Shown: piece after piece, positions 2,155-59,606 of the stretch
Layout: each line of letters starts with the position of its first letter
Numbering within the stretch: the stretch's first letter is position 1
NCBI GenBank assembly: GCA_017480745.1
Contig: JAFUSA010000025.1
Coordinates: 22,122 to 86,121 of the forward strand
Direction of reading: 5' to 3'
DNA from: Alphaproteobacteria bacterium
GTDB lineage: Bacteria; Pseudomonadota; Alphaproteobacteria; RF32; CAG-239
Length of the DNA stretch: 64,000 nt
Made by a program: the position numbers and the translations under genes
Notes under the pieces: model-generated
Told to the model about the DNA's origin: nothing
Seen by the model: only the letters and a program-made list of their open reading frames with translations
The model's database searches: none

Positions 2155-2422
2155 TTGACATTTGAATTTTTTGTGCTATTATAAAATCAGAACTTCGGTT
2201 CGGAGCCTTAACAAGCTCGTAATATGTGCGGTGCATTTTGCATCGTTAAAATGACGTAATATATCTCCGATTTGGGTTGGGGAGCGTTCAATGGATGTTC
2301 AGGGCGGAAGCCTAAAGATTGGATGGATCATTTCACATATTATGGTTTGTTAACTCTCCCGACCGCCGTTTGGCGGTTGATTAGTTATTAACAACAATTT
2401 TTCTCAAGAAGGAGATTTAAAA
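2155..2422 (+). promoter_or_regulatory. Promoter plus structured 5' leader of prepilin-like paralog 1 (divergent member of the conserved leader family)
   Basis: TTGACA 2155-2160, 16-nt spacer, TGcTATTAT with -10 at 2177-2182. The leader has the family architecture: hairpin CTCC/GGAG (2264-2284), distal CTCTCCC 2354-2360, CCGCC-gttt-GGCGG 2363-2376, SD GGAGA 2411-2415. Confidence 0.6.
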
Positions 2423-3193
2423 ATGAAAACATATAAAACAGAATCCGGACGATCCATGATTGAAATGTTGGGCGTTTTGGCCATTATCGGCGTGTTGAGC
2501 GTGGGCGGTATCGCCGGATATTCAAAGGCGATGATGAAATATCGCATTAATAAATCCATTGAACAGATATCAATGATTGTTACCAATGTGCGCACTCTGT
2601 TTGGCAGCCAAAAGAATTATAAAGCTTTGGGAAATATCGGAACTTCTGATGCCACTAACGGCAATGGGAGTTTAATTGCCAAAGCCAAGTTATTTCCTGA
2701 TGAATTGTTAAACGGTACTACCGGTGTGGTTGATAATCCGAATCCGTTTGGTGGCAAAATTGAACTAATATATTCAGCACGCAATGCTGGTGATGAAAAG
2801 GCGTTTATGCTTATTTTTGACAGTATTCCGGAAGAAGCTTGTATGGATTTGGCAACTCAAAATTGGGGTTCTGCTTCCGGTTCCGGTTTGATTGCGATGG
2901 CAGTGGAACCCACAGCCGCTGCTGCCCCAGCAGCTGGAGGTAGTAGCGCAAGTGCTCCATCATCTGCTCCGTTGGAAGGTGCCGCAACACCTCAAGCTGG
3001 GACGGCTTTAACCACTCCTCTTGATGCTGTATATCAGGGTAAGTGCACTGATGCATCTGGAACGGGTTCATTAAAGGCAGCTTTAAGCGGTAAGATAAAA
3101 GGTGTTTGTGGCGGTCAAAATTCTATGAGTGCCAGTGATGCCGCTACGGCTTGTGAGGGTGATTCCAATACATTATATCTGAAATTTTACTAA
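2423..3193 (+). CDS. Prepilin-like protein (type IV pilin/pseudopilin-type N-terminal helix), paralog 1 of 7, with an Ala/Pro/Ser/Gly-rich low-complexity insert
   Basis: MKTYKTESG|RSMIEMLGVLAIIGVLSVGGIAGYSKAMMKYRINKSIEQI: Gly then Glu at +5 and a roughly 20-aa hydrophobic helix, as in class III signal peptides. Family motifs AKLFPDEL, PFGG and EEACMDLATQNW are present. Confidence 0.75.
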   Translation: MKTYKTESGRSMIEMLGVLAIIGVLSVGGIAGYSKAMMKYRINKSIEQISMIVTNVRTLFGSQKNYKALGNIGTSDATNGNGSLIAKAKLFPDELLNGTTGVVDNPNPFGGKIELIYSARNAGDEKAFMLIFDSIPEEACMDLATQNWGSASGSGLIAMAVEPTAAAAPAAGGSSASAPSSAPLEGAATPQAGTALTTPLDAVYQGKCTDASGTGSLKAALSGKIKGVCGGQNSMSASDAATACEGDSNTLYLKFY

Positions 3194-7003: not shown

Positions 7004-10000
7004 ATGCAAAAATCATTGTTTACAAGATTTATTTTAAGTACAACCGCACTATCGTTCAGTTTTGCCGTGTTCTATCCGTATAGTTCGCAAGCCGCCGGTT
7101 TGGCTCCGGTTTCTTTTGAAGCAATGTATAATTTGGCAAAAAGCGGGAATGTGCAAGCTCTACGTGCATCAGTGCGCCGCGGTATGAATATTGATGTTAT
7201 GGATTCGAACGGAGATACGGGGTTATGTATAGCAGCGCAAAATAATGATCACTACACATATAATGCTTTTCGCGCTGCCGGCGCTAATCCCAATCATCCA
7301 TGCGTGCAAAAAATTGACCATTATGAGGATTTTTTGGCATCATCAAAAACTGTTGCTCTCAATGCTACTCCGCGAGAGGCTTTTAGTGCCGTTGGTTTAG
7401 AAAATTTTCATTTTCAGCCTAATTGGTGGATTGTCGGTGGCGTTGTTTTGGCCGGCGGTGCCGCAGCTTTGGCACTTAGCAGCGGTGGCGGCGGTGGAAA
7501 AAGCTCCGGTGGAAGTGGTGGAGACGATAGTAAACCGAAAGAAGAATATAATAGTTTGGCTTCTAAGCTGGCGGTAAACGGCTCAATAAAAGATACTGTT
7601 GATTCAACAAGCAAGGCTAACAGTGCTCGAATAGACGTAACAAACAGCAATACTGCGCAAATAAATACTATTGACTTTACAAAAAGTGTTTTGGATTATG
7701 CCGGATATGTTAATGTAGGGTTAAATGCTAAAAACGGTGGAAAATACACCAATGAATCCGCCGGTGTGATATATCTTACTTCGGGTGCGGTAGGCATGAG
7801 CGCTTTAACCAATTCCGAGGTTGTGAACAATGGCTTTATTCATGCTGATGCCTATAACGGTACTATTGGTATGGTAGGCAGTCAAAAATCGGTGATTACT
7901 AACAATGCTGCTGGTATAATAGCCAATGTTAACGATTCTAAGGGAATTGATTTGAATTTTTCCGGTAAGGATGGAATTGACGCAGTTATAGGTATGTATG
8001 TTGATACCAATTCACAGGCGATAAACAACGGTGATATTCGCGGAACGGCAATTCAGGCATATAGTGCCGGCACAACAACATCAGATGCTTCAACTTCTAT
8101 TGTCGGCAATATAATCGGTATGGAAGCAATGATCTTGAATGCCGGAAACGATGTTGCCGGTAAAGAAATAATTTTAAGCAATAACGGATCCGGTAATATC
8201 AATATCAGTGCCGGTGATGGTGGTTCGGGAACAACGGTTAATTTAAATTCTATCGGTATGGGAAGCTTTTTGGATAACGCTTTCTTAAACGGCTCTAAAA
8301 ATATTAACCGTGCCGAAGTGGTAACCATTAACAATAATGGCAATATTTCTATTGCCTATACCGGAACATACAGCCCGACTTCGGATACCACGCTTCGCAA
8401 AGGCACGGGAGGCGTTGTCGGTATGCGAGCCGATGCTAATACTACGGCTAACAATAGCGGAAACATTAATTTAAACTTTTCTCAATACGGTTCTTCCTCA
8501 TCACAACAGGGAATAAGCGCGGGAATGCAGTCAATTCACGGTGCTAATTTAACTAACAGCGGTAATATAAACATAACAACCATTGCCACCAATCAACTCG
8601 GTAATTATGGTATGCTTTCCGTAGAGGGTAGCGGATCTGTTTCCGGACTTTATACCGACTTAAATCAAAAGTTGAGTAATACCGGAGAAATTATTGTTAA
8701 AGCCACTAACAGTTACGGTATGGCTTCTTATAACGGTGGAACTTTAAGTAACAGCAACCACATTGCCGTAGGCAGTGCAACTGATACGCAATATAACAAT
8801 AATGTGGCAATGTATGGTTCCGGTGAAGGCACACAGGTAACTTTAAGCAATACCGGAACTATTGATGTTTATTCGTATAATTCTTATGCGATGAAAAACG
8901 ATTTTGCCGGTGCGCAAACAATACAAAACGACGGAACGATTAATATAAATTATGAAGCGACAAATTCCAAAGTTTTTGGAGGATATTATAGCTATGCCAT
9001 AAATAACGGACTTATCAACTATTATATAACGTCCGGCGGTAGTATGTCTGGAAGCGGAACAGATGCCGATGATCCTTTTTCCGAATATACTTTACAAGTT
9101 TCTCAATCTGTTTTGACTACGGAAAATTCTTCAACCTCTTCTTCAACTACGGAACTATTAACTAATAACAGTGGCAAAAACATAAATATTTACGGTTCGT
9201 CTTTTACTTCCGGTATGAGTATTATGTCTGCACGCGGTCAGGCTGAGAATTTAGGAACTATCAATCTTTTTCCGTATAGCGATAATTCCGAGTCAAATTC
9301 GGTTGTTATGTATATGGGGGACGACGGAATTAGCAGCGCAGCAATTCTTAATAGTGGAACAATTAACACAAGTTCCAATATGTCGGCGGCAATGGCCAGT
9401 GATTCATCACAAAATTCCCGCGTTATTAACTATGGAACCATTAATACTTCTAAGCCATATTCTATCGGGCTCTATGCCTCAGGTAGAAGTGTGTTAAATA
9501 ATTATGGTATTATAAAAATGAATGCTTCTGAAAGTGTTGGTGTGTATTCATCAGGTCCATCAAATATAATCAATACCGGCACTATAACCATCGGTTCTGC
9601 CGGCAATTCGCAGACATCGGTTTTCGGACTATATTCCAAAGGTGCGAACATTTCAATTACCAACGGAGATGATAGCGGAGTAGCCGCCGCTATAAATGTT
9701 TATGCAACAGGAAAACATAATGCAGGTATCTATGCCTCCGGAGATTACAATGTTGTATATAACAAATCCGGAGCCGTTATCGGCGGTAGTATATATAACG
9801 GTATTTCAATAACCGGAGCCAACAATACGGCGGTTAATTACGGCACGATCAGTGGTGTAGAAAACGGTATTTTCTCAGACGGTGAGAAAGCAACCATTGT
9901 AAACAGTGGGCTTATTACGGCAAGTACCTACGGAATACAAGCCAAACAAAGCGGTAGCAATATTACAAACAATGGCACTATAACTTCGGCAGATACAGGT

Positions 10001-11656
10001 ATTTGGGCTTATGCCGAGGGAACATCGGAAGAAGAAAAAACAACCATTACCAATAACGGCACTATCACGGCGCCTACCGGTATTTATGTTAAAATTGCTT
10101 CACCGGATGTTTATTTGGATGTTAAAAATAACGGCGCCATAAATTCCACATCTTACCAAGTACACACCTATGGTGAATATGAAAAACCATTAGAACCTGA
10201 TGAAGATTTTGATAAAAATATTAGTGTTATCGGAGCGAGTAATTGGTATAAAGAATATGAATCATACGAGAAAGAAACCCAAACAGCAGAAACAGCATTT
10301 AGAATACCTGCAAAACGTAATTGGAACTTCATCAATAACGGAACATATTATTCTGCCACAGCGTTAAACTTTGATAATTCGTTCTTCAATTTTGTTTTGG
10401 ATGAAAATGCGTCTTATGTTGCTCCGGCTTTAAGCGGAACAGTAAATTTGGCTGATAACGTGGTATCATCCGGTTTTGAAAATGAATATGCGGTTAAAAA
10501 TGCTTTTGTCGGAGCCAATAAAGGTATTGTACTTAATAACAATTTATACATGTTTGAAAATACTTTGCGCGAAAATTCATCCGGCGCCTTAGATGCCGTT
10601 GCCACTATGCGTGATTTCGGAGAATTGATGAAAAATCAATCGTTGGCTAAATATTTGTCGGCAAACTATCAACAACAGAATAACGAAAATTTATATTCCG
10701 CGCTCAAAACAACGCGTAGTGCAGCTGCGTTTGATGCTGTAATAAATAAAAAATTCGCCCTTGATTTTGTGCCTAATTTAGCCAAACAAAATTTGGATAA
10801 TATGCAAATTATCGATCGTGAAATAAATGATGAATTGTTAGAAAAAACTTATTTGCCTAAGAGGTATTCGGTTAAAGTTGTTAGCTATAAAAAAGATGTT
10901 GACGGTAAACATGAAATAAGCGGATATAAAGATAAGGTAACATCGGTTTATGGATTCGGCGATCACTATTTGGGGCATAATATGCGTGGCGGTTACGGAT
11001 TAAACGTTACGCGTAGCGACAGTGATTTTGATAACGATTCTTCTCGCTATAACAATGTTGTAGAAGCGTTTGCTCCTGTTTTGTGGAACAAGGCGGATAC
11101 TTCGGCTTTGGTTAAATTAAAAGCAGGTTTCGGACGCGGACATTATCGTCGCATCGGATTAAATAACGCTCCGCATAAAATGCAAACCAAAGAGTATTAT
11201 TATGGATTTGATACTGATTTTCGCCATGATTTTGACTTAGGAGCATTAGTTTTGGAACCGCATATCGGTTTTGACACAACCGCTATGTATATGGATAATT
11301 CAGGCGAAAGCAACGGTGGTTTGAAATTAAAAGACGAAAATATTGTTTCGGCAAAGTCTGTAATTGGTCTGAAGCTGAAAAAAAGTTTTGATTTTAACTA
11401 TAATCAGTCGCTTGATTTGAGTGCCGGTGGAACATATTATCACGAATTTGGTAATAAATATCGTCAGTCGGTTGCCGCAGATGGAATGAGCGGTGTTTAT
11501 GAAATTGCCGATGGTCGTATGCAACGCAATTTCGGTTTGCTCAATATGAAAGCCAAATATCAATATAAGCAATTTTCGTTAGGTGTATCGGCAAATGCAC
11601 CTCTTGAACAGAAAAATAACGCTTATTATATGCTTGATTTAGGGTATAAATTTTAA
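7004..11656 (+). CDS. Autotransporter outer membrane protein with a large repetitive passenger and a C-terminal beta-barrel
   Basis: 1550 aa. Signal peptide MQKSLFTRFILSTTALSFSFAVFYPYSSQA. The Asn/Gly/Ser/Thr-rich passenger repeats N-x-G-x-I motifs. The last ~280 aa show alternating beta-strand patterns and end in ...YMLDLGYKF (terminal Phe). Confidence 0.8.
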   Translation: MQKSLFTRFILSTTALSFSFAVFYPYSSQAAGLAPVSFEAMYNLAKSGNVQALRASVRRGMNIDVMDSNGDTGLCIAAQNNDHYTYNAFRAAGANPNHPCVQKIDHYEDFLASSKTVALNATPREAFSAVGLENFHFQPNWWIVGGVVLAGGAAALALSSGGGGGKSSGGSGGDDSKPKEEYNSLASKLAVNGSIKDTVDSTSKANSARIDVTNSNTAQINTIDFTKSVLDYAGYVNVGLNAKNGGKYTNESAGVIYLTSGAVGMSALTNSEVVNNGFIHADAYNGTIGMVGSQKSVITNNAAGIIANVNDSKGIDLNFSGKDGIDAVIGMYVDTNSQAINNGDIRGTAIQAYSAGTTTSDASTSIVGNIIGMEAMILNAGNDVAGKEIILSNNGSGNINISAGDGGSGTTVNLNSIGMGSFLDNAFLNGSKNINRAEVVTINNNGNISIAYTGTYSPTSDTTLRKGTGGVVGMRADANTTANNSGNINLNFSQYGSSSSQQGISAGMQSIHGANLTNSGNINITTIATNQLGNYGMLSVEGSGSVSGLYTDLNQKLSNTGEIIVKATNSYGMASYNGGTLSNSNHIAVGSATDTQYNNNVAMYGSGEGTQVTLSNTGTIDVYSYNSYAMKNDFAGAQTIQNDGTININYEATNSKVFGGYYSYAINNGLINYYITSGGSMSGSGTDADDPFSEYTLQVSQSVLTTENSSTSSSTTELLTNNSGKNINIYGSSFTSGMSIMSARGQAENLGTINLFPYSDNSESNSVVMYMGDDGISSAAILNSGTINTSSNMSAAMASDSSQNSRVINYGTINTSKPYSIGLYASGRSVLNNYGIIKMNASESVGVYSSGPSNIINTGTITIGSAGNSQTSVFGLYSKGANISITNGDDSGVAAAINVYATGKHNAGIYASGDYNVVYNKSGAVIGGSIYNGISITGANNTAVNYGTISGVENGIFSDGEKATIVNSGLITASTYGIQAKQSGSNITNNGTITSADTGIWAYAEGTSEEEKTTITNNGTITAPTGIYVKIASPDVYLDVKNNGAINSTSYQVHTYGEYEKPLEPDEDFDKNISVIGASNWYKEYESYEKETQTAETAFRIPAKRNWNFINNGTYYSATALNFDNSFFNFVLDENASYVAPALSGTVNLADNVVSSGFENEYAVKNAFVGANKGIVLNNNLYMFENTLRENSSGALDAVATMRDFGELMKNQSLAKYLSANYQQQNNENLYSALKTTRSAAAFDAVINKKFALDFVPNLAKQNLDNMQIIDREINDELLEKTYLPKRYSVKVVSYKKDVDGKHEISGYKDKVTSVYGFGDHYLGHNMRGGYGLNVTRSDSDFDNDSSRYNNVVEAFAPVLWNKADTSALVKLKAGFGRGHYRRIGLNNAPHKMQTKEYYYGFDTDFRHDFDLGALVLEPHIGFDTTAMYMDNSGESNGGLKLKDENIVSAKSVIGLKLKKSFDFNYNQSLDLSAGGTYYHEFGNKYRQSVAADGMSGVYEIADGRMQRNFGLLNMKAKYQYKQFSLGVSANAPLEQKNNAYYMLDLGYKF

Positions 11657-11728: not shown

Positions 11729-12469
11729 TTATTTTAACCTTGTTTTCCACGGTTCAGCGTTTACGTCTATATCAAAATAAAATCCTACATCATCTATGTA
11801 TCTATCAGCACAATACTTAACAGCATTATCTACCGTTACCGGCGTTTTCAAATACGTTCCGCGATTAGTTCCATCAACCACAAAAATTGCCGCAACATTA
11901 GCGTTAGTCCAATCTTGTGATACTAATTCAATACAGGCTTCATCAGATTCTATTTCATACGACATCTTAAAAGCTTTGTTTTGTTCTGTTGATGATTTAT
12001 CAATAGAATAAAGTGAAAATCCACCGCCAAAAGCATTGGTAGTATCTGCTCTCGATCGCGATCCCATAGGTCCCTCAGATATATTACTCAACATTTCATC
12101 GGGAAGAAGTTTTGCCTTAATTACCACCGGACAGTCTACGTCACAATACGCTCCTTCATAACTTCTTTGCGGAGCAAAAAATGCTCGCACATTGCCGGCA
12201 ATTAAAGTTATCTGCTCGATAGTTTTGTTAATGCGATACTTCATCACTGCTTTGGAATATCCGGCGATTCCGCCAACGCTTAACACACCGATAATTGCCA
12301 GCACGCCAAGCATCTCTATCATGCTTCTTCCGCATTGCGGCGCATCTGCTTGTCTGTTTTTCGCTGGTGTACTGTCTGTGTACACGGCACTCAAAACGGC
12401 CGGCGCATCTGCACCACTCTTCGGAAGAAGTGAACGACCATTTTCATTTTCTAAATCAAAGTTTCTCAT
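11729..12469 (-). CDS. Prepilin-like protein, paralog 2 of 7 (47-aa leader peptide)
   Basis: MRNFDLENENGRSLLPKSGADAPAVLSAVYTDSTPAKNRQADAPQCG|RSMIEMLGVLAIIGVLSVGGIAGYSKAVMKYRINKTIEQITLIAGNVRAFF. Family motifs KAKLLPDEM, AFGGG and EACIELVSQDW are present. Confidence 0.75.
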   Translation of the reverse strand: MRNFDLENENGRSLLPKSGADAPAVLSAVYTDSTPAKNRQADAPQCGRSMIEMLGVLAIIGVLSVGGIAGYSKAVMKYRINKTIEQITLIAGNVRAFFAPQRSYEGAYCDVDCPVVIKAKLLPDEMLSNISEGPMGSRSRADTTNAFGGGFSLYSIDKSSTEQNKAFKMSYEIESDEACIELVSQDWTNANVAAIFVVDGTNRGTYLKTPVTVDNAVKYCADRYIDDVGFYFDIDVNAEPWKTRLK

Positions 12470-12715
12470 AGTAAACTTCCTTTCATTAAAGTTGTTGTTT
12501 TAATATTAAAATTGCCGCCTCATGAGGCGGCTGGAAGTTCAAAGCTATTATAAGTTAAATAGTGTAGCTTATTAAAACATGTTCTATTCGGCTACCTTCC
12601 AGCCATGCTGGAAAATTTTTACGTCCTTAAAGACGAACTTATAAGAGGCTTTGAAACCCCAGATGACTTTTACCTCATCTTATACTTGTTATACCATAAA
12701 AAGTTCAAAAGTCAA
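12470..12715 (-). promoter_or_regulatory. Promoter plus conserved structured 5' leader of paralog 2
   Basis: On the minus strand: TTGACT (12715-12710), N16, TGgTATAAC (-10 at 12693-12688). Leader hairpins are AGATGA/TCATCT, CGTC/GACG, TTCCAGC/GCTGGAA and GCCGCC-tcatga-GGCGGC (12514-12531), followed by AAAGGAAGTTTACT-ATG. Confidence 0.7.
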
Positions 12716-18525: not shown

Positions 18526-18769
18526 TTGACTTCTGTATTTTTTGTGGTATAGTTAAAATCAAGATGAGGTAACTTGTCTGAGGTGTCGAAACCTCTTGTA
18601 TGTTCGTCTTTTATAGACGTTAATTTTCCGGCAATGGTCGGAAGGTTGCAAAATAAAGCATGTGCTAATATGCGACACTATTTAACATACAGTAGTTTCG
18701 AACTTCCGGCCGCCTCAGTAGGCGGTTGTTTTAATGTAATTCAACAACAAACATGAAAGGAAGTTTACT
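18526..18769 (+). promoter_or_regulatory. Promoter plus conserved structured 5' leader of paralog 3
   Basis: TTGACT 18526-18531, N16, TGgTATAGT (-10 at 18548-18553). Hairpins are GAGGT/ACCTC, CGTC/GACG, TTCCG/CGGAA and CCGCC-tcagta-GGCGG (18710-18725) followed by TTGTTTT, then AAAGGAAGTTTACT-ATG. Confidence 0.7.
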
Positions 18770-19417
18770 ATGAGAAACTTTGAAATTAAAAATAATGCTT
18801 CTCTCTCCCTTTGCGGGCGAGGAAGCCAGTATGGTCGTTCTATGATTGAGATGCTTGGCGTGCTTGCCATAATCGGCGTTTTAAGTGTTGGCGGTATCGC
18901 CGGATATTCAAAAGCCATGACCAAATATCGTATCAACAAAACTATTGAGCAAATAACTTTAATTGCCGGAAATGTGCGAGCATTTTTTGCCTCGCAAAGA
19001 AGTTATGAAGGATTAAATAATAGTGATGTTATCAAAAAAGCCAAACTTGTGCCCGAAGAGATGATAGAAGATCGTGGTGAGTATATAGAAATAATAAACG
19101 CTTTTGGAGGCAGTTGTTATTTGGATACTTATGACAACAATAAATCTTTTGGCTTTTCCTGTTATGGAATATCGGAAGAAGCATGTATTGAATTACTTTC
19201 TTTTGATTGGAGTGCTACAAATGCCAACGGAGCTATCTTATGTACGAATAATGGCCCTGAGTATGATTATTATTTACGTTTGCCCATAGATTTAGATAAA
19301 GCCGTAACGTATTGTCATAAAGCTTTTGAAGAAGCGGACTCTGATGATTTGTTTGTTTTGGGATTAACGTTTGATTTAGATAAAAATTCAGATTTATGGA
19401 AGAACACGTATAAATAG
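18770..19417 (+). CDS. Prepilin-like protein, paralog 3 of 7 (22-aa leader peptide)
   Basis: MRNFEIKNNASLSLCGRGSQYG|RSMIEMLGVLAIIGVLSVGGIAGYSKAMTKYRINKTIEQITLIAGNVRAFF. Family motifs KKAKLVPEEM, AFGG and EEACIELLSFDW are present. Confidence 0.78.
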   Translation: MRNFEIKNNASLSLCGRGSQYGRSMIEMLGVLAIIGVLSVGGIAGYSKAMTKYRINKTIEQITLIAGNVRAFFASQRSYEGLNNSDVIKKAKLVPEEMIEDRGEYIEIINAFGGSCYLDTYDNNKSFGFSCYGISEEACIELLSFDWSATNANGAILCTNNGPEYDYYLRLPIDLDKAVTYCHKAFEEADSDDLFVLGLTFDLDKNSDLWKNTYK

Positions 19418-23949: not shown

Positions 23950-24816
23950 TCAATCAACCCAATCACGATCTTTCCAGTATTCTGAATTAGGATCTACATC
24001 GAAATAAAAGCATAGCTGTGCATAATCAGGATTGGATTTCATTACTTCTGCACATTTTTCAGTGGCTTTATCTACCGGAATCGGCAGAGATTTAAAGTAA
24101 CGACTAATATCTTCGTCATAAAGATCCACTACAGTAATCTTAGCTTCGGCCCAATCTTGGCTTAACAGTTCAATACAGGCTTCTACATTATCTCCAATGT
24201 AGTAATTAATAAAAAATGCCTGATTATCACCTTCTTTGGATTTATCTTCTGTATATAACTCAACCCCATAGCCAAAAGGATTGGTGATAGACATAATCTT
24301 GCCATCAGTTACGGTAATCATCTCATCAGGGAATATTTTGGCTTTTTTAACTATCGGACAGCCATTGGCAGCCGAGATTAAAAGTCCGTATGGATTAACG
24401 CTGGAATGCCCAGAGCAACCGGGGGCGTCGCAAGTGCCATCACGTCCCGTATTACTGCAACGCACCCCGATATAATTCTTCTGCGGTGCAAAGAAAGAGC
24501 GCACATTGCCGGCAATTAGGGTTATTTGCTCTATTGCTTTATTGATTCTATATTTTTGCATGGCTTTGGAATAGCCGGCTATACCGCCCACCGAAAGAAC
24601 ACCAATTATTGCCAACACACCTAGCATCTCAATCATGCTTCTCCCGTATTGCAGCACATCTGCTTGTATGTTTTTCGCTGGTGTACTGTCTGTGTACACG
24701 GCACTCAAAACAGTCGGCGCATCTGCACCACTCTCCGGAAGAAGTGTAAGACCTGATTGGCTCTCTTTCCCGCAAGGGGCGAGAGAATCATTATTTTTTA
24801 TTTTTAGGTTTATCAT
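23950..24816 (-). CDS. Prepilin-like protein, paralog 4 of 7 (58-aa leader peptide, Cys-rich C-terminal class)
   Basis: MINLKIKNNDSLAPCGKESQSGLTLLPESGADAPTVLSAVYTDSTPAKNIQADVLQYG|RSMIEMLGVLAIIGVLSVGGIAGYSKAMQKYRINKAIEQI. The block KKAKIFPDEMITVTDGKIMSITNPFG is shared with paralogs 5 and 7. Confidence 0.78.
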   Translation of the reverse strand: MINLKIKNNDSLAPCGKESQSGLTLLPESGADAPTVLSAVYTDSTPAKNIQADVLQYGRSMIEMLGVLAIIGVLSVGGIAGYSKAMQKYRINKAIEQITLIAGNVRSFFAPQKNYIGVRCSNTGRDGTCDAPGCSGHSSVNPYGLLISAANGCPIVKKAKIFPDEMITVTDGKIMSITNPFGYGVELYTEDKSKEGDNQAFFINYYIGDNVEACIELLSQDWAEAKITVVDLYDEDISRYFKSLPIPVDKATEKCAEVMKSNPDYAQLCFYFDVDPNSEYWKDRDWVD

Positions 24817-25059
24817 AGTAAACTTCCTTTCACTTAATTAATTGTTTTAACACCAAAATAACCGCCCACTGAGGCGGCCGGAAGCGCAAACTATCTAACA
24901 TGATATAGTGCAGGTTATTTGATTACTCTTATTCACCCACCTTCCAGCCATAGCCGGAAATATTTAACGTCTCTATATGACGCATGTTAGAGAGGCTTGC
25001 GACCCCAGACAAGTTACCTCGTCTTGCTTTTACTATACCATAGAAAAATCAAAAGTCAA
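24817..25059 (-). promoter_or_regulatory. Promoter plus conserved structured 5' leader of paralog 4
   Basis: On the minus strand: TTGACT (25059-25054), N16, TGgTATAGT (-10 at 25037-25032). Hairpins are AGAC/GTCT, GGGGT/GCCTC, CGTC/GACG, TTCCGGC/GCTGGAA and CCGCC-tcagtg-GGCGG (24862-24877), followed by AAAGGAAGTTTACT-ATG. Confidence 0.7.
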
Positions 25060-30066: not shown

Positions 30067-30306
30067 TTGACTTTTATTTTTTTTGTGATATAGTAAACTC
30101 ATGATGAGGTAACTTGTCTGAGGTGTGACAACCTCTTTTTCACTCGCTTTTAAAGAGCGTTATTTTTCCGGTGTTGACCGGAAGGTTGCGGAATAGATTT
30201 CAATACGCAACACTATTCAGTGAAAAGTAGTTGTCAACTTCCGGCCGCCTCAGTGGGCGGTTAATTTTGTAATGAAATAACTAATTTGATGAAAGGGAAG
30301 TTTACT
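30067..30306 (+). promoter_or_regulatory. Promoter plus conserved structured 5' leader of paralog 5 (reference copy for the helix coordinates)
   Basis: TTGACT 30067-30072, N16, TGaTATAGT (-10 at 30089-30094). P1 30120-30135, P2 30145-30159, P3 30166-30183, P4 30186-30210, P5 30212-30231, distal CTTCCGG 30238-30244, CCGCC-tcagt-GGGCGG 30245-30260 followed by TTAATTTTG, SD GGAAGT 30296-30301. Confidence 0.72.
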
Positions 30307-31041
30307 ATGGAAAACTTAAAAATAAAAAATATAAATTGCCACGCTGCACTCGCAATGACAAAAAATGCGCAGAGTGGTCGTTCAATGATAGAGATGTTGG
30401 GAGTTCTTGCTATAATTGGTGTGCTTTCGGTGGGCGGAATCGCCGGATACAGCAAGGCAATGATGAAGTATCGTATTAACAAAACGATAGAACAAATAAC
30501 TCTTATTGCCGGTAATATTCGTGCCTTTTGGGGACCACAGAAGAATTATGATGGAGTGCGTTGTAGTAGTAATTTTCATGGCACTTGCGAGGCCTCCGGT
30601 TGCATGGGTGTTTCCGGCGTTGATGCAGACGGAAATTCTACCTCTGCTTACAATGGCTGTCCGATAGTTAAAAAAGCCAAAATATTCCCTGATGAAATGA
30701 TTACCGTAACTGATGGTAAGATTATGTCTATTACCAATCCTTTTGGTGGTGGGGTTTGGTTAGGAACACGGGATAAAGCCAAAGGCGGTGATAATCAGGC
30801 GTTTTACATCAATTATACTATTGGAGATAATGAAGAAGCATGTATTGAGTTAGCAACTCATGATTGGAGCAATGCCGGAGCTTCTATAATCAATATTAAT
30901 GACTCTTATGTTAGCAAAACTCCTGCGGATTTAGAAATTGCCACGCAATATTGTAGTGATGGAGATGATAATGACATATGGTTATATTTTGATGTAGATG
31001 CCAACTCAACTTATTGGACTGCACAATTAGGCGAACGTTAG
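30307..31041 (+). CDS. Prepilin-like protein, paralog 5 of 7 (24-aa leader peptide, Cys-rich C-terminal class)
   Basis: The start is set at ATG 30307 by homology (the track start at 30286 is TTG inside the RBS). MENLKIKNINCHAALAMTKNAQSG|RSMIEMLGVLAIIGVLSVGGIAGYSKAMMKYRINKTIEQI; also KKAKIFPDEMITVTDGKIMSITNPFGG and EEACIELATHDW. Confidence 0.78.
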   Translation: MENLKIKNINCHAALAMTKNAQSGRSMIEMLGVLAIIGVLSVGGIAGYSKAMMKYRINKTIEQITLIAGNIRAFWGPQKNYDGVRCSSNFHGTCEASGCMGVSGVDADGNSTSAYNGCPIVKKAKIFPDEMITVTDGKIMSITNPFGGGVWLGTRDKAKGGDNQAFYINYTIGDNEEACIELATHDWSNAGASIININDSYVSKTPADLEIATQYCSDGDDNDIWLYFDVDANSTYWTAQLGER

Positions 31042-50303: not shown

Positions 50304-50954
50304 TTAATAAAAAGTATGCTCAAATGTTTCAGTTCCATCAAAAGATAAAAATAGATATTCTCTTGTTCGATTAGAGCAGATAGTTTGTGCCACAGCTATA
50401 TCCGGAGTTGACATACAGTTTGGATTTGGCGCGTATGCACAAATATATTTTGCACCTGTGGCAGACCAATCTTGACTCATTAAATCAATACACGCTTCTT
50501 CCGGTACCTCATCATAATATATACAAAAATACCCTTTGCCTTGATCAACTTGATTTTCATTGCTGTGTGCAAATCCAGTCAAATCGACATTTCCACCGAA
50601 TGGATTAGTCATAGCGGTAATATTGCCATCTGAATCCAAAGTTAACATTTCATCCGGCACAAGTTTGGCTTTTTTAATTATTGTCATTTTATCATTACTA
50701 TTCAAATCTGCGTAACTTCTCTGATTTGCAAAAAATGTATGAATATTACCGGCAATGAGAGTTATTTGCTCAATGGTTTTGTTAATGCGATACTTCATCA
50801 TTGCTTTGCTATATCCGGCGATTCCACCAACGCTCAAAACACCGATAATTGCTAAAACACCCAACATCTCAATCATTGAACGACCGCTCTGCACGCTTTT
50901 CGTCATTGCGAGCGCAGCGTGGCAATCATTATTTTTTATTTCTAAGTTTCTCAT
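50304..50954 (-). CDS. Prepilin-like protein, paralog 6 of 7 (24-aa leader peptide)
   Basis: MRNLEIKNNDCHAALAMTKSVQSG|RSMIEMLGVLAIIGVLSVGGIAGYSKAMMKYRINKTIEQITLIAGNIHTFF. Family motifs KKAKLVPDEM, NPFGG and EEACIDLMSQDW are present. Confidence 0.78.
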   Translation of the reverse strand: MRNLEIKNNDCHAALAMTKSVQSGRSMIEMLGVLAIIGVLSVGGIAGYSKAMMKYRINKTIEQITLIAGNIHTFFANQRSYADLNSNDKMTIIKKAKLVPDEMLTLDSDGNITAMTNPFGGNVDLTGFAHSNENQVDQGKGYFCIYYDEVPEEACIDLMSQDWSATGAKYICAYAPNPNCMSTPDIAVAQTICSNRTREYLFLSFDGTETFEHTFY

Positions 50955-51192
50955 AATAAACTTCCTTTCATTTTTGTTGTTATTACATTAAAATAACCGC
51001 CCACTGAGGCGGTCGGAAGTTGAAAGCTATTACAACATAAATAGTGTCGCATATTAGTACAAACCTATTCTGCAACCTTCCGACCGTAGTCGGAAATTTA
51101 ACGCCTTTAAGGCGATGTTGTAAGAGGCTTTCAAACCTCAGACAAGTTACCTCATCATGAGTTTACTATACCATAAAAAATCTAAAAGTCAA
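50955..51192 (-). promoter_or_regulatory. Promoter plus conserved structured 5' leader of paralog 6
   Basis: On the minus strand: TTGACT (51192-51187), N16, TGgTATAGT (-10 at 51170-51165). Hairpins are GAGGT/GCCTC, CGCC/GGCG, TTCCGAC/GTCGGAA, distal CTTCCGAC and CCGCC-tcagtg-GGCGG (50997-51012), followed by AAAGGAAGTTTATT-ATG. Confidence 0.7.
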
Positions 51193-58693: not shown

Positions 58694-58940
58694 TTGACTT
58701 TAAAAAAAATATATGATAATACAAGAATAAGATGAGGTGAAAATCATCTGGGGTCTGAAAACCTCTCAATTTGCGTCAGTAAAAGACGTTAAAATCGTTT
58801 CCGACTAAGGTTGGAAGGTGGGTGAATAAGAGAAATTAAATAACTCACACTATTCAAATTGATAGTTTTCAGCTTCCAGCCGTCTTATCTGGCGGCAATT
58901 TTGGTATTAAAACAACTAATTTAATGAAAGGAAGTTTACT
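58694..58940 (+). promoter_or_regulatory. Promoter plus conserved structured 5' leader of paralog 7
   Basis: TTGACT 58694-58699 and TGaTAATAC around 58714-58722. Hairpins are AGATGA/TCATCT, GGGGT/ACCTC, CGTC/GACG, TTCCGAC/GTTGGAA, distal CTTCCAGC and GCCGTC-ttatct-GGCGGC (58879-58896), followed by AAAGGAAGTTTACT-ATG. Confidence 0.7.
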
Positions 58941-59606
58941 ATGAGAAACTTTGAAATAAAAAATAATGATTCTCTCTCCCGCAAAGGACGAGGGAGCCAG
59001 ACTGGTCGTTCAATGATAGAAATGTTGGGCGTTCTTGCTATCATTGGTGTTTTGAGTGTTGGTGGAATTGCCGGATATTCAAAGGCAATGATGAAATATC
59101 GCATCAATAAAACCATTGAGCAAATAACACTAATTGCCGGTAATGTGCGTGCCTTTTGGGGACCACAGAAGAATTATATCGGGGTGAGTTGTTCTGGATA
59201 TAATTGCAAAGCCTCCGGTTGCTCTGGGCAATCTTCCGGTGATGGCTGCCCTATACATAAAAAAGCCAAAATATTCCCTGATGAAATGATTACTGTAACT
59301 AATGGTAAGATTATGTCTATTACCAATCCTTTTGGTGGAGAGGTTAATTTATATTCAGTAGTGAAATCTCAAAGCGGTGATATGCAGGCGTTTGTAATGG
59401 AATCCCTATTACCTCAAGAAGCATGTATTGAGTTAGCAACTCATGATTGGAGTAGTGCCGGAGTTAACGCAATCTCTATTAATGGTCCTGTACCATTAAT
59501 AACACCGCCAGTAGATTTAAATTTCGCCACAGATAATTGCTTTGATGGTTATAACGAGATACGTTTACATTTTGGTATAGATGTCAATTCTAATTTTTGG
59601 AAATAA
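58941..59606 (+). CDS. Prepilin-like protein, paralog 7 of 7 (22-aa leader peptide, Cys-rich C-terminal class)
   Basis: MRNFEIKNNDSLSRKGRGSQTG|RSMIEMLGVLAIIGVLSVGGIAGYSKAMMKYRINKTIEQITLIAGNVRAFW. Motifs KKAKIFPDEMITVTNGKIMSITNPFGG and QEACIELATHDW are present. Confidence 0.78.
   Translation: MRNFEIKNNDSLSRKGRGSQTGRSMIEMLGVLAIIGVLSVGGIAGYSKAMMKYRINKTIEQITLIAGNVRAFWGPQKNYIGVSCSGYNCKASGCSGQSSGDGCPIHKKAKIFPDEMITVTNGKIMSITNPFGGEVNLYSVVKSQSGDMQAFVMESLLPQEACIELATHDWSSAGVNAISINGPVPLITPPVDLNFATDNCFDGYNEIRLHFGIDVNSNFWK

Follow-up and report, generated by a model that had tools for sequence, protein, structure and literature searches.

A predicted riboswitch-like attenuator with a translational lock in front of type IVb pilin genes of gut and rumen Alphaproteobacteria

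Described attenuators and the pilin leaders of the window

Closure of a three-way junction prevents termination in the adenine ON riboswitch pbuE/ydhL of Bacillus subtilis, whose closing helix has its 3' strand in common with the 5' arm of the terminator. The pyr leaders of B. subtilis (PyrR) and the S-box leaders (SAM-I) comprise a terminator, an antiterminator and an anti-antiterminator, the last of which is stabilised by the effector and makes them OFF switches. In riboswitches with dual transcriptional and translational platforms, the same released strand permits the terminator and sequesters the Shine-Dalgarno sequence (SD). The leader RNA described here precedes seven type IVb pilin genes in a stretch of 64,000 nucleotides (the window) of an Alphaproteobacteria bacterium (assembly GCA_017480745.1, contig JAFUSA010000025.1). 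Comparison with homologous leaders suggests a cis-acting, riboswitch-like transcription attenuator with an added translational lock, which would work as an ON switch stabilised by a ligand or another factor; the probability of this reading is estimated at roughly 0.55.

For type IV pili, riboswitch-controlled antitermination has, by analogy, a direct precedent in the cyclic diguanylate (c-di-GMP)-II riboswitch Cdi-2-4, which turns on pilA1 of Clostridioides difficile by blocking termination (PMC6366702). Like Cdi-2-4, the present element lies in the 5' leader of a type IV pilin gene, features an intrinsic terminator as default and a (here predicted) pseudoknotted fold preventing termination, and occurs in several copies per genome ahead of genes for surface proteins. 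Unlike Cdi-2-4, it belongs to another host phylum (Alphaproteobacteria), has another helix layout and shows no sequence or structure match to that riboswitch.

The gene starting with the ATG at 2423 encodes a product with the N-terminus MKTYKTESGRSMIEMLGVLAIIGVL and matches to Pfam PilS (1.8e-9) and Bundlin (1e-7), which identify a type IVb pilin. Altogether, seven type IVb pilin paralogues with an invariant N-terminal helix are dispersed over the 64-kb window among housekeeping genes (rimP-nusA-infB-rbfA, glycogen phosphorylase, response regulator), the remaining six starting at 18770, 30307 and 58941 on the forward and at 12469, 24816 and 50954 on the reverse strand. Directly 5' of each of these PilS/Bundlin-type genes stands a leader of about 215 nucleotides (nt) with its own promoter, in which promoter, 5' hairpin, pseudoknotted core, intrinsic terminator and SD follow one another up to the pilin gene (Table 1). 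The promoters are sigma-70-like with an extended -10 box and reach 10-11 of 12 positions in a consensus scan covering two copies, i.e., the one at 18770 and the divergent one at 2423 (copy 1). The six other, close copies share a common pattern of segments, namely a (TTTCC followed by a variable core), a' (core followed by GGAAGG), a'' (RCTTCC followed by the core) and the SD AAAGGAAGTT. The original prediction, made by a model from the letters of the window, had located these segments in copy 1 correctly (a TCTCC 2264-2268, a' GGGGAG 2279-2284, a'' CTCTCCC 2354-2360, SD GGAGA 2411-2415); counterparts were found in all six other leaders, and the T-tract placed at 30262-30270 is present as well. 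The cores, which had been described as changing in concert, are identical between a and a'' in four of the six close copies. The remaining two copies preserve the fit to a' by means of G-U pairs, with a single exception, an A-C mismatch in the 30307 copy.

Alternative helices, predicted terminator and proposed masking of the Shine-Dalgarno sequence

To collect homologues, metagenomes were scanned for a degenerate pattern of the leader in which GGAAGG and CTTCC were fixed, and at least 120 contigs matched. A covariance model (CM), R1, was built from 70 diverse sequences, and 94 distinct leaders were aligned (alignment A4, to which all column numbers refer). The observations hold across these 94 homologues, which stem from gut and rumen metagenomes. 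In the window itself, R1 detects six strong copies as well as copy 1 at 16 bits.

Strand a' was predicted to pair either locally with a, forming helix P3, or over a long range with a'', enclosing helices P4 and P5, and both helices covary in the family. The a':a'' helix, which is the one picked by RNAalifold on a structure-blind alignment, shows repeated double changes at four variable positions, e.g., at columns 115:265 (AU38/GC35/GU22) and 117:263 (UA72/CG16/AU5). The same covariation appears on a structure-blind MAFFT alignment. P3 is 87% paired and covaries at 100:115 (CG31/UA30) and 98:117 (GU36/AU33/GC13). Moreover, P3 reaches into P4 by taking up 2-3 nt of the P4 5' strand, again with covariation (90:125 CG34/UA26; 91:124 GC42/AU22), and the same columns of the P4 5' strand covary with the P4 3' strand (124:205 CG51/UA39). 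Both partners are fitted at once by the a' core in 69 of 87 sequences and by the base of P4 in 66 of 83. Since the nucleotides of a' and of the P4 base are complementary to two partners each, the comparison provides direct evidence, at the sequence level, that two mutually exclusive folds are maintained by selection. The energies of the two helices are close, with -14.2 kcal/mol for the P3 hairpin and -13.5 kcal/mol for the a':a'' duplex, and their composition differs, P3 being systematically the softer helix with 69% Watson-Crick, 19% G-U and 12% mismatched cells compared to 95%, 5% and 0.4% for a':a''.

Covariation further supports P2, P2b, P4 with its extension, and P5. Taken together, the eight helices including pseudoknots are 94% paired (P4 97%, P5 99.5%, a':a'' 99.7%), with double changes in 38 of 43 pairs; the observed pairing was reached by none of 500 shuffles, and slid-register controls fell to about 40%. 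Two long-range pairings complete the core. The loop of P2 (Y) and the 6-7 nt directly preceding a'' (Y') form a pseudoknot which was not part of the aligning CM and is nonetheless 96.5% paired with all six pairs covarying. The loop of P5 (X') pairs with the linker 3' of P2 (X), for which cognate partners form 6.6 contiguous base pairs (bp) on average compared to 1.8 bp in permuted combinations (maximum 2.28 in 1000 permutations; 91 distinct sequences). Copy 1 retains Y:Y', X:X' and P5 with wholly different sequences. These two covarying pairings, the extension of P3 into P4 and the size of the family, which exceeds 100 members, are additions to the original picture. With covariation and the permutation test, a conserved structured RNA domain as known from riboswitches is found. 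The loop strands Y and X' adjoin the 3' arm of their own hairpin, with 1-3 nt on the 5' side, an arrangement which, judged by established pseudoknot stereochemistry, would be normal pseudoknot geometry. A second switch by steric exclusion of P5 and X:X' (likewise of P2 and Y:Y') was dropped for this canonical geometry. Another candidate, a duplex of the P2 5' arm and a'' (a*:a'', GAGGU:ACUUC) by which the nested minimum free energy (MFE) fold extends the long helix, was treated as an artefact of the model or a minor state, as P2 covaries and variants with altered P2 (e.g., L129 and L155) lack a*:a'' on inspection by eye. A third pseudoknot (pk2) between the P2b loop (GTGTAAA/TGCAA) and TTTGCAC just 5' of a (columns 46-51 with 85-90, e.g., in L081 and L180) is 61% paired overall and lacks its segment in the window copies, which marks it as a feature of a subgroup.

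The window alone hardly allows concerted change to be separated from descent, the six close copies being on average 70% identical, and the likeness of a, a', a'' and SD could have been inherited from one duplicated leader as a structurally meaningless trait. In the 94 diverse leaders, however, paired positions change repeatedly with complementarity kept, and X:X' and Y:Y' remain complementary although nearly every copy has its own sequences for them, while slid-register and permutation controls give no signal. On this comparative sequence evidence, such an artefact of paralogy can be regarded as already refuted.

Immediately after the core, a perfect hairpin occurs in 89 of the 94 leaders, mostly with 7-8 bp, and is followed by at least 6 U within the next 8 nt in 76 of these 89. 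Its stem begins within a'' in nearly every case, in 67 of the 89 at the seventh nucleotide of RCTTCC-NNNNNN, and the overlap of a'' with the 5' arm has a median of 4 nt. Sequestration of a'' would weaken the hairpin from -8.9 to -2.8 kcal/mol. Judged by sequence, the GC-rich hairpin and U-tract are those of an intrinsic (Rho-independent) terminator, with weaker representatives in the window. The suggestion that the GC hairpin after a'' resembles a terminator was borne out by a consensus scan in the 18770 copy and copy 1 and by a hairpin search in all six close copies.

This terminator also bears on the view that the leader is a constitutive structure, serving mRNA stability, processing or translation of very highly expressed surface proteins by a weak-terminator or pause hairpin, with P3 and a':a'' as mere steps of ordered co-transcriptional folding. 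P1 at the extreme 5' end behind a strong promoter would fit this explanation, as would the abundance of pilins and the one very stable fold given by the nested MFE prediction, whose z-scores against shuffled sequence are -7.2 (18770 copy) and -4.7 (copy 1). Nevertheless, the two exclusive helices are energetically balanced and both kept by compensatory change, a strong intrinsic terminator (6-7 U) between the promoter and its sole gene would be wasteful unless bypassed, and a specific complementarity of the SD to a'' is not needed for stability. We hold a constitutive role to be improbable.

A start codon on the same strand follows in 90 of the 94 leaders, which places the element in the 5' untranslated region of the gene, as expected for a riboswitch. 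The gap between terminator and start averages about 37 nt with few longer outliers, whereas the promoter lies 25-30 nt upstream of P2 in the family and P1 forms the very 5' end. As a gap of this size is too short for a separate promoter, expression requires read-through of the terminator. An own promoter, a strong terminator, many copies per genome (seven in 64 kb) and tandem copies without an intervening gene (L083, L094, L134) would likewise suit genes of independent small RNAs (sRNAs), whose terminated transcript of about 170 nt acts in trans, e.g., with its exposed A-R-CUUCC on the GGAAGUU SDs of sibling mRNAs, leading to mutual repression of the paralogues. The complementarity of a'' to the SD variant GGAAGU, which is almost private to the regulon, points in the same direction. 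Yet the regular start codon at so short a mean distance is the signature of a cis-acting leader, and the overlap of a':a'' with the terminator would be without a role in a pure sRNA, so that independent sRNA genes appear very improbable.

The SD itself distinguishes the genes behind the leader from their neighbours. GGAAG within 20 nt of the start was found in 38-40% of the motif genes compared to 2.2% of 556 control genes on the same contigs, GGAAGT in 30% compared to 0.2% and GGAAGTT in 24% compared to 0.2%, which amounts to a roughly 15- to 150-fold enrichment. For the A-R-CUUCC strand that directly precedes the terminator stem, the duplex energy averages -6.6 kcal/mol with the SD region of the same copy, compared to -3.5 kcal/mol with control SD regions. 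This complementarity is significant in 47% of the members at p<=0.05, among them copy 1 and all close copies of the window except the one at 24816 (p=0.10), and in 31% at p<=0.01. It is found in front of both pilin and non-pilin genes and is independent of terminator strength; no trade-off between terminator strength and SD masking was found among the leaders. Both a'' and a had been proposed to pair with the SD. The proposal stands for a'', whereas pairing of a with the SD was rejected as a conserved feature, with 4.4% of members at p<=0.05 corresponding to chance level and no enrichment. Similarly, the switch of all four segments to another flavour in copy 1 is solid with regard to a, a' and a''. 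Only three members of this GGAG flavour are known, i.e., copy 1, L031 and L065, each with all four segments of the CUCC/GGAG type. The extended a'':SD match reaches p=0.029 in copy 1 and p=0.004 in L031, but because GGAG is frequent as an SD in these genomes, at 23% of controls, the SD part of the flavour switch is suggestive only.

Comparison of sequences establishes the helices, their mutual exclusivity, the overlap with the terminator and the complementarity to the SD. An expression platform with mutually exclusive states (P3 as opposed to a':a'' with P4), as in riboswitches, is thereby found in the leader. The two covarying partners of a', the nearly isoenergetic helices and both relations of a'' support the switchable platform with terminator that the original prediction had read from the exclusive pairings.

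Known families, relatives and downstream genes

The alternatives checked (ALTERNATIVES) comprised a leader peptide, a CsrA-like open reading frame (ORF), an Rfam family and the literature. With Rfam 15 at gathering thresholds, only two tRNAs pass in the window and the leaders match no family, and relaxed thresholds gave nothing beyond chance sub-threshold matches in the window leaders and related loci. Two of these, sRNA-Xcc1 (RF02221; 18636-18719, 27.5 bits against a gathering score of 53) and Chlorobi-1 (RF01696; 18460-18526 on the forward strand, 29.5 bits against 50), were each confined to one copy of seven and, being far below their gathering scores, were treated as chance and rejected as the leader family. 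The Chlorobi-1 region consists of the rbfA terminator hairpin and an AT-rich stretch up to the -35 box of the leader and lies upstream of the promoter. The c-di-GMP-I and -II riboswitches (RF01051, RF01786) gave no match at E<=10 in the window and at E<=1 in six related loci. For the T-box (RF00230), there was no Rfam match, and the downstream genes are not related to aminoacyl-tRNA. Attenuation by a leader peptide of the trp type was rejected, as 66 of 94 leaders lack an ATG-initiated ORF preceded by an SD and the remainder show such ORFs at scattered positions. A literature search found no description of the motif.

In a pilin-anchored set, 80 loci were kept from species genomes, their hosts being uncultured gut and rumen Alphaproteobacteria. 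Here, R1 detected 17 leaders, i.e., 15 strong ones, L031 (44 bits) and the marginal L065 (17.5 bits, E 0.19). A sequence-only nhmmer iteration on the 80 loci stopped at 16 matches. Many pilin relatives carry unrelated leaders, which shows that the leader is no obligatory part of a pilin gene. One such type in related metagenome-assembled genomes (MAGs) displays two hairpins with TTAGGAGG in the loop, resembling SD decoys, ahead of the real SD, and another one is marked by a long palindrome (ATGTCCGAAAAAAGGGATCCCTTTTTTCGGACAT), present once or twice, adjoining the SD. Alternative pilin leaders occur in L027, L041, L048, L052 and L062 (upstream of the pilin match at about 2001) and in L009-L015, L028, L064 and L071; both types suggest that regulation of this gene family has been solved in independent ways. 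Some bins labelled [Ruminococcus] gnavus (L037, L041, L045) or Bacteroidaceae (L027, L060) carry pilin loci of the alphaproteobacterial type, including the leader in L037 and L060, which most likely reflects contamination or mislabelling of these Firmicutes and Bacteroidota bins.

Pilins account for about half of the genes downstream of the leader. The others encode lipoproteins, an outer membrane beta-barrel protein, PEGA, RgpF, an Mrr-domain protein, XRE regulators and small uncharacterised proteins. The GGAG-flavour leader of L031 (4084-4192) precedes a non-pilin protein of 75 amino acids that by eye resembles an XRE-like helix-turn-helix (HTH) regulator; several other leaders stand in front of XRE-like HTH regulators, of which the one of L162 was confirmed as HTH_3.

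A gene set of envelope and surface proteins instead of a metabolic pathway would also suit protein-dependent attenuation, in which the same helices are balanced by an RNA-binding protein (PyrR-, TRAP- or CsrA-like, or a sensor of pilus assembly or export status) on the purine-rich a'/P3 internal loop or the core. GGA motifs in a' and in the SD, the centre of P3, which is often a GAA/GGA internal loop instead of a helix (12% of P3 cells unpaired), and the other pilin leader families with AGGAGG in hairpin loops, like decoys for a protein or the ribosome, agree with such a factor. For CsrA/RsmA in particular, a' is always helical, either in P3 or in a':a'', and a motif search detected no CsrA-like ORF in 1.1 Mb of related sequence, which is fragmentary and makes this a weak test. 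Furthermore, no candidate protein is linked to the loci, and in its size and double-pseudoknot complexity the core resembles typical ligand-binding aptamers more than protein operators. A protein factor in place of a ligand is a serious rival, even if we consider it unlikely.

Among the 94 leaders, tandem arrangements with about 120 nt in between and no real gene were noticed in L083 (656-799/918-1065), L094 (1121-1270/1393-1539) and L134 (2328-2401/2497-2637), the first copy of L083 being followed by only an 8-codon ORF that overlaps the next promoter. Such tandem leaders may be stand-alone RNAs or remnants. Weak antisense CM matches (15-22 bits) in the window (18634-18784 and 58807-58956 on the reverse strand, 12454-12606 on the forward strand) and in L075, L030 and L061 are due to the GGAAG/CTTCC symmetry, by which SD, a'' and a' are read on the opposite strand as a', a'' and an a-like segment.

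Within the P1 loop, a three-codon mini-ORF AUG-AGG-UAA (with UGA in one copy) occurs in five window copies, at about 18563-18571, 30103-30111 and 58733-58741 on the forward and 12672-12680 and 51154-51162 on the reverse strand, and in none of the other family members. The P1 region also contains GAUGA...CUGA, which recalls C/D-box or kink-turn motifs. Among the pilins, those encoded at 11729-12469 and 23950-24816 on the reverse strand have an extra pre-peptide segment of about 35 amino acids in common (SGADAP.VLSAVYTDSTPAKN.QAD) ahead of the cleavage motif GRSMIEML, while the pre-peptides are otherwise highly variable across the seven paralogues. Besides, the window encodes a 1550-amino-acid ORF (7004-11656, forward strand) with no Pfam match at E<=1e-5.

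Table 1. Coordinates of the seven pilin leaders in the window and of their segments (copies are named after the start of the pilin gene; CM scores refer to R1; p values compare the a'':SD duplex with control SD regions).
Feature	Position	Strand	Sequence	Remarks
Copy 1, leader	2155..2425	+		divergent, GGAG flavour; -35 TTGACA to ATG of pilin gene 2423-3193; CM end-to-end match 16 bits; fold z-score -4.7
Copy 1, Y (P2 loop)	2208..2214	+	TTAACAA	pairs with Y' 2347-2353
Copy 1, X (linker 3' of P2)	2219..2228	+	GTAATATGTG	complementary to X' 2334-2343
Copy 1, a (5' arm of P3)	2264..2268	+	TCTCC	
Copy 1, a' (SD mimic and switching strand)	2275..2284	+	GGTTGGGGAG	CM-aligned to family a'
Copy 1, X' (within P5 loop)	2334..2343	+	CACATATTAT	
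Copy 1, Y' (immediately 5' of a'')	2347..2353	+	TTGTTAA	
Copy 1, a''	2354..2364	+	CTCTCCCGACC	a'':SD duplex -7.8 kcal/mol, p=0.029
Copy 1, terminator-like GC hairpin	2360..2379	+		5' arm overlaps a'' at 2360-2364
Copy 1, SD	2409..2415	+	AAGGAGA	
18770 copy, leader	18526..18772	+		canonical; pilin gene 18770-19417; promoter 10/12, extended -10; CM 118 bits; fold z-score -7.2
18770 copy, Y (P2 loop)	18586..18592	+	TCGAAAC	
18770 copy, X	18597..18604	+	TGTATGTT	
18770 copy, a	18624..18632	+	TTTTCCGGC	
18770 copy, a'	18636..18645	+	GGTCGGAAGG	
18770 copy, X' (P5 loop)	18684..18691	+	AACATACA	
18770 copy, Y'	18695..18701	+	GTTTCGA	
18770 copy, a''	18702..18711	+	ACTTCCGGCC	p=0.002
18770 copy, terminator-like hairpin	18707..18728	+	then TTTTAATG	overlaps a''
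18770 copy, SD	18756..18765	+	AAAGGAAGTT	
30307 copy, leader	30067..30309	+		pilin gene 30307-31041; CM 104 bits
30307 copy, a	30164..30172	+	TTTTCCGGT	
30307 copy, a'	30176..30185	+	GACCGGAAGG	
30307 copy, a''	30237..30246	+	ACTTCCGGCC	p=0.007
30307 copy, terminator-like hairpin	30243..30262	+	then AATTTTG	
30307 copy, SD	30292..30302	+	AAAGGGAAGTT	
58941 copy, leader	58694..58943	+		pilin gene 58941-59606; CM 105 bits
58941 copy, a	58798..58805	+	TTTCCGAC	
58941 copy, a'	58809..58818	+	GGTTGGAAGG	
58941 copy, a''	58872..58881	+	GCTTCCAGCC	p=0.03
58941 copy, terminator-like hairpin	58879..58896	+		
58941 copy, SD	58927..58936	+	AAAGGAAGTT	
12469 copy, leader	12467..12715	-		pilin gene 11729-12469; CM 111 bits
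12469 copy, a	12607..12615	-	TTTTCCAGC	
12469 copy, a'	12595..12604	-	GGCTGGAAGG	
12469 copy, a''	12529..12538	-	ACTTCCAGCC	p=0.002
12469 copy, terminator-like hairpin	12514..12531	-		
12469 copy, SD	12474..12483	-	AAAGGAAGTT	
24816 copy, leader	24814..25059	-		pilin gene 23950-24816; CM 87 bits
24816 copy, a	24953..24960	-	TTTCCGGC	
24816 copy, a'	24940..24949	-	GGCTGGAAGG	
24816 copy, a''	24876..24885	-	GCTTCCGGCC	p=0.10
24816 copy, terminator-like hairpin	24860..24879	-		
24816 copy, SD	24821..24830	-	AAAGGAAGTT	
50954 copy, leader	50952..51192	-		pilin gene 50304-50954; CM 112 bits
50954 copy, a	51089..51096	-	TTTCCGAC	
50954 copy, a'	51076..51085	-	GGTCGGAAGG	
50954 copy, a''	51011..51020	-	ACTTCCGACC	p=0.007
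50954 copy, terminator-like hairpin	50995..51014	-		
50954 copy, SD	50959..50968	-	AAAGGAAGTT	

Proposed mechanism and meaning

From these comparative data, we infer the operation in vivo, the direction of the switch and the nature of the signal as follows. Transcription would start from the sigma-70-type promoter at the 5' hairpin P1 and continue into a sensor-like core of P2, P2b, P4, P5, Y:Y' and X:X', the two latter bracing the P4/P5 junction. Strand a' would act as the switching strand, which either pairs with a to form P3, thereby also taking the first 2-3 nt of P4, or pairs with a''; the latter helix would stack on P4 and close the junction between P4 and P5. For a'', three alternative partners are predicted, i.e., a', the 3' arm of the terminator and the SD region (GGAAGUU; in about half of the members, including the window copies). 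In the ON state, a':a'' would be formed with the junction closed, the terminator reduced to 3-4 bp and the SD free. In the OFF state, P3 would be formed, the released a'' would allow the terminator to fold, and in read-through transcripts A-R-CUUCC would mask the SD. Because P3 is transcribed first, OFF should be the kinetic default, and the exchange of strands towards a'':a' must be favoured by something, presumably a ligand, which we prefer, or another factor bound at the pseudoknotted junction. Pilin paralogues of type IVb and further envelope proteins would then form a regulon controlled by an ON switch, with a ligand an ON riboswitch.

The proposed ON switch resembles pbuE/ydhL in the double use of the 3' strand of the closing helix, here a'', which also contributes to the 5' arm of the terminator. 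Unlike in pbuE/ydhL, the 5' strand a' of the closing helix has an upstream competitor (a, in P3), two loop-to-strand pseudoknots brace the junction instead of a loop-loop kiss, and the shared strand can also mask the SD. Like the pyr and S-box leaders, the element would comprise three tiers, with a' choosing an upstream partner (P3 as anti-antiterminator) or a downstream one (a':a'' as antiterminator overlapping the terminator). Opposite polarity is suggested because here it is the antiterminator that shows the higher conservation and all-Watson-Crick pairing and that lies within the complex core. The predicted release of a'' for both terminator and SD masking corresponds to the dual-platform riboswitches, from which the leader differs by an SD that has co-evolved to GGAAGU, a variant nearly absent from the other genes of the same genomes.

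Several points weigh against such a switch. The invariance of GGAAGG and CTTCC in the metagenome set is partly imposed by the search pattern, and the sequences are phylogenetically related, by which the shuffle statistics overstate significance. The set of downstream genes points to no ligand, sharing an envelope theme instead of a metabolic pathway. Masking of the SD has significant complementarity in only the said 47% of members, and the U-tracts of the window copies are weaker and interrupted, with 4-5 U in 8 nt compared to a family mean of 6.4. In addition, a nested nearest-neighbour model, in which pseudoknots are not scorable, favours P3 together with a continuous long helix and the terminator over the a':a'' fold by about 9 kcal/mol in 81 of 88 members; although this comparison is unfair to the pseudoknotted fold, a':a'' may be rarely populated.

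On balance of the sequence evidence, the leader is rated as a new, widespread class of riboswitch-like attenuator. A bolder version is tentative, and we would sooner bet against it than for it: the leader might represent a new orphan riboswitch class with an unseen fold, in which two reciprocal loop-to-strand pseudoknots brace a three-way junction, an anti-antiterminator is built in, and a single strand serves as junction closer, terminator arm and anti-SD. It might sense, e.g., a second messenger and co-ordinate a regulon of pilins and surface proteins in uncultured gut and rumen Alphaproteobacteria, and terminated leaders might cross-repress their siblings in trans via the GGAAGU SD.

If the attenuator reading is true, a new, structurally complex class would join the few leader RNAs controlling pili and surface proteins, and it would be the first such element for these gut and rumen Alphaproteobacteria, which form a large uncultured group. 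It would provide a natural example of one strand, a'', with three mutually exclusive jobs, and of an SD which has drifted to a regulon-private variant fitting its masking partner. A surface regulon of many genes would become predictable from sequence, with seven pilins in 64 kb as well as lipoproteins, porin-like proteins and regulators elsewhere, and this would offer a testable handle on the switching of adhesins by these bacteria in their host.

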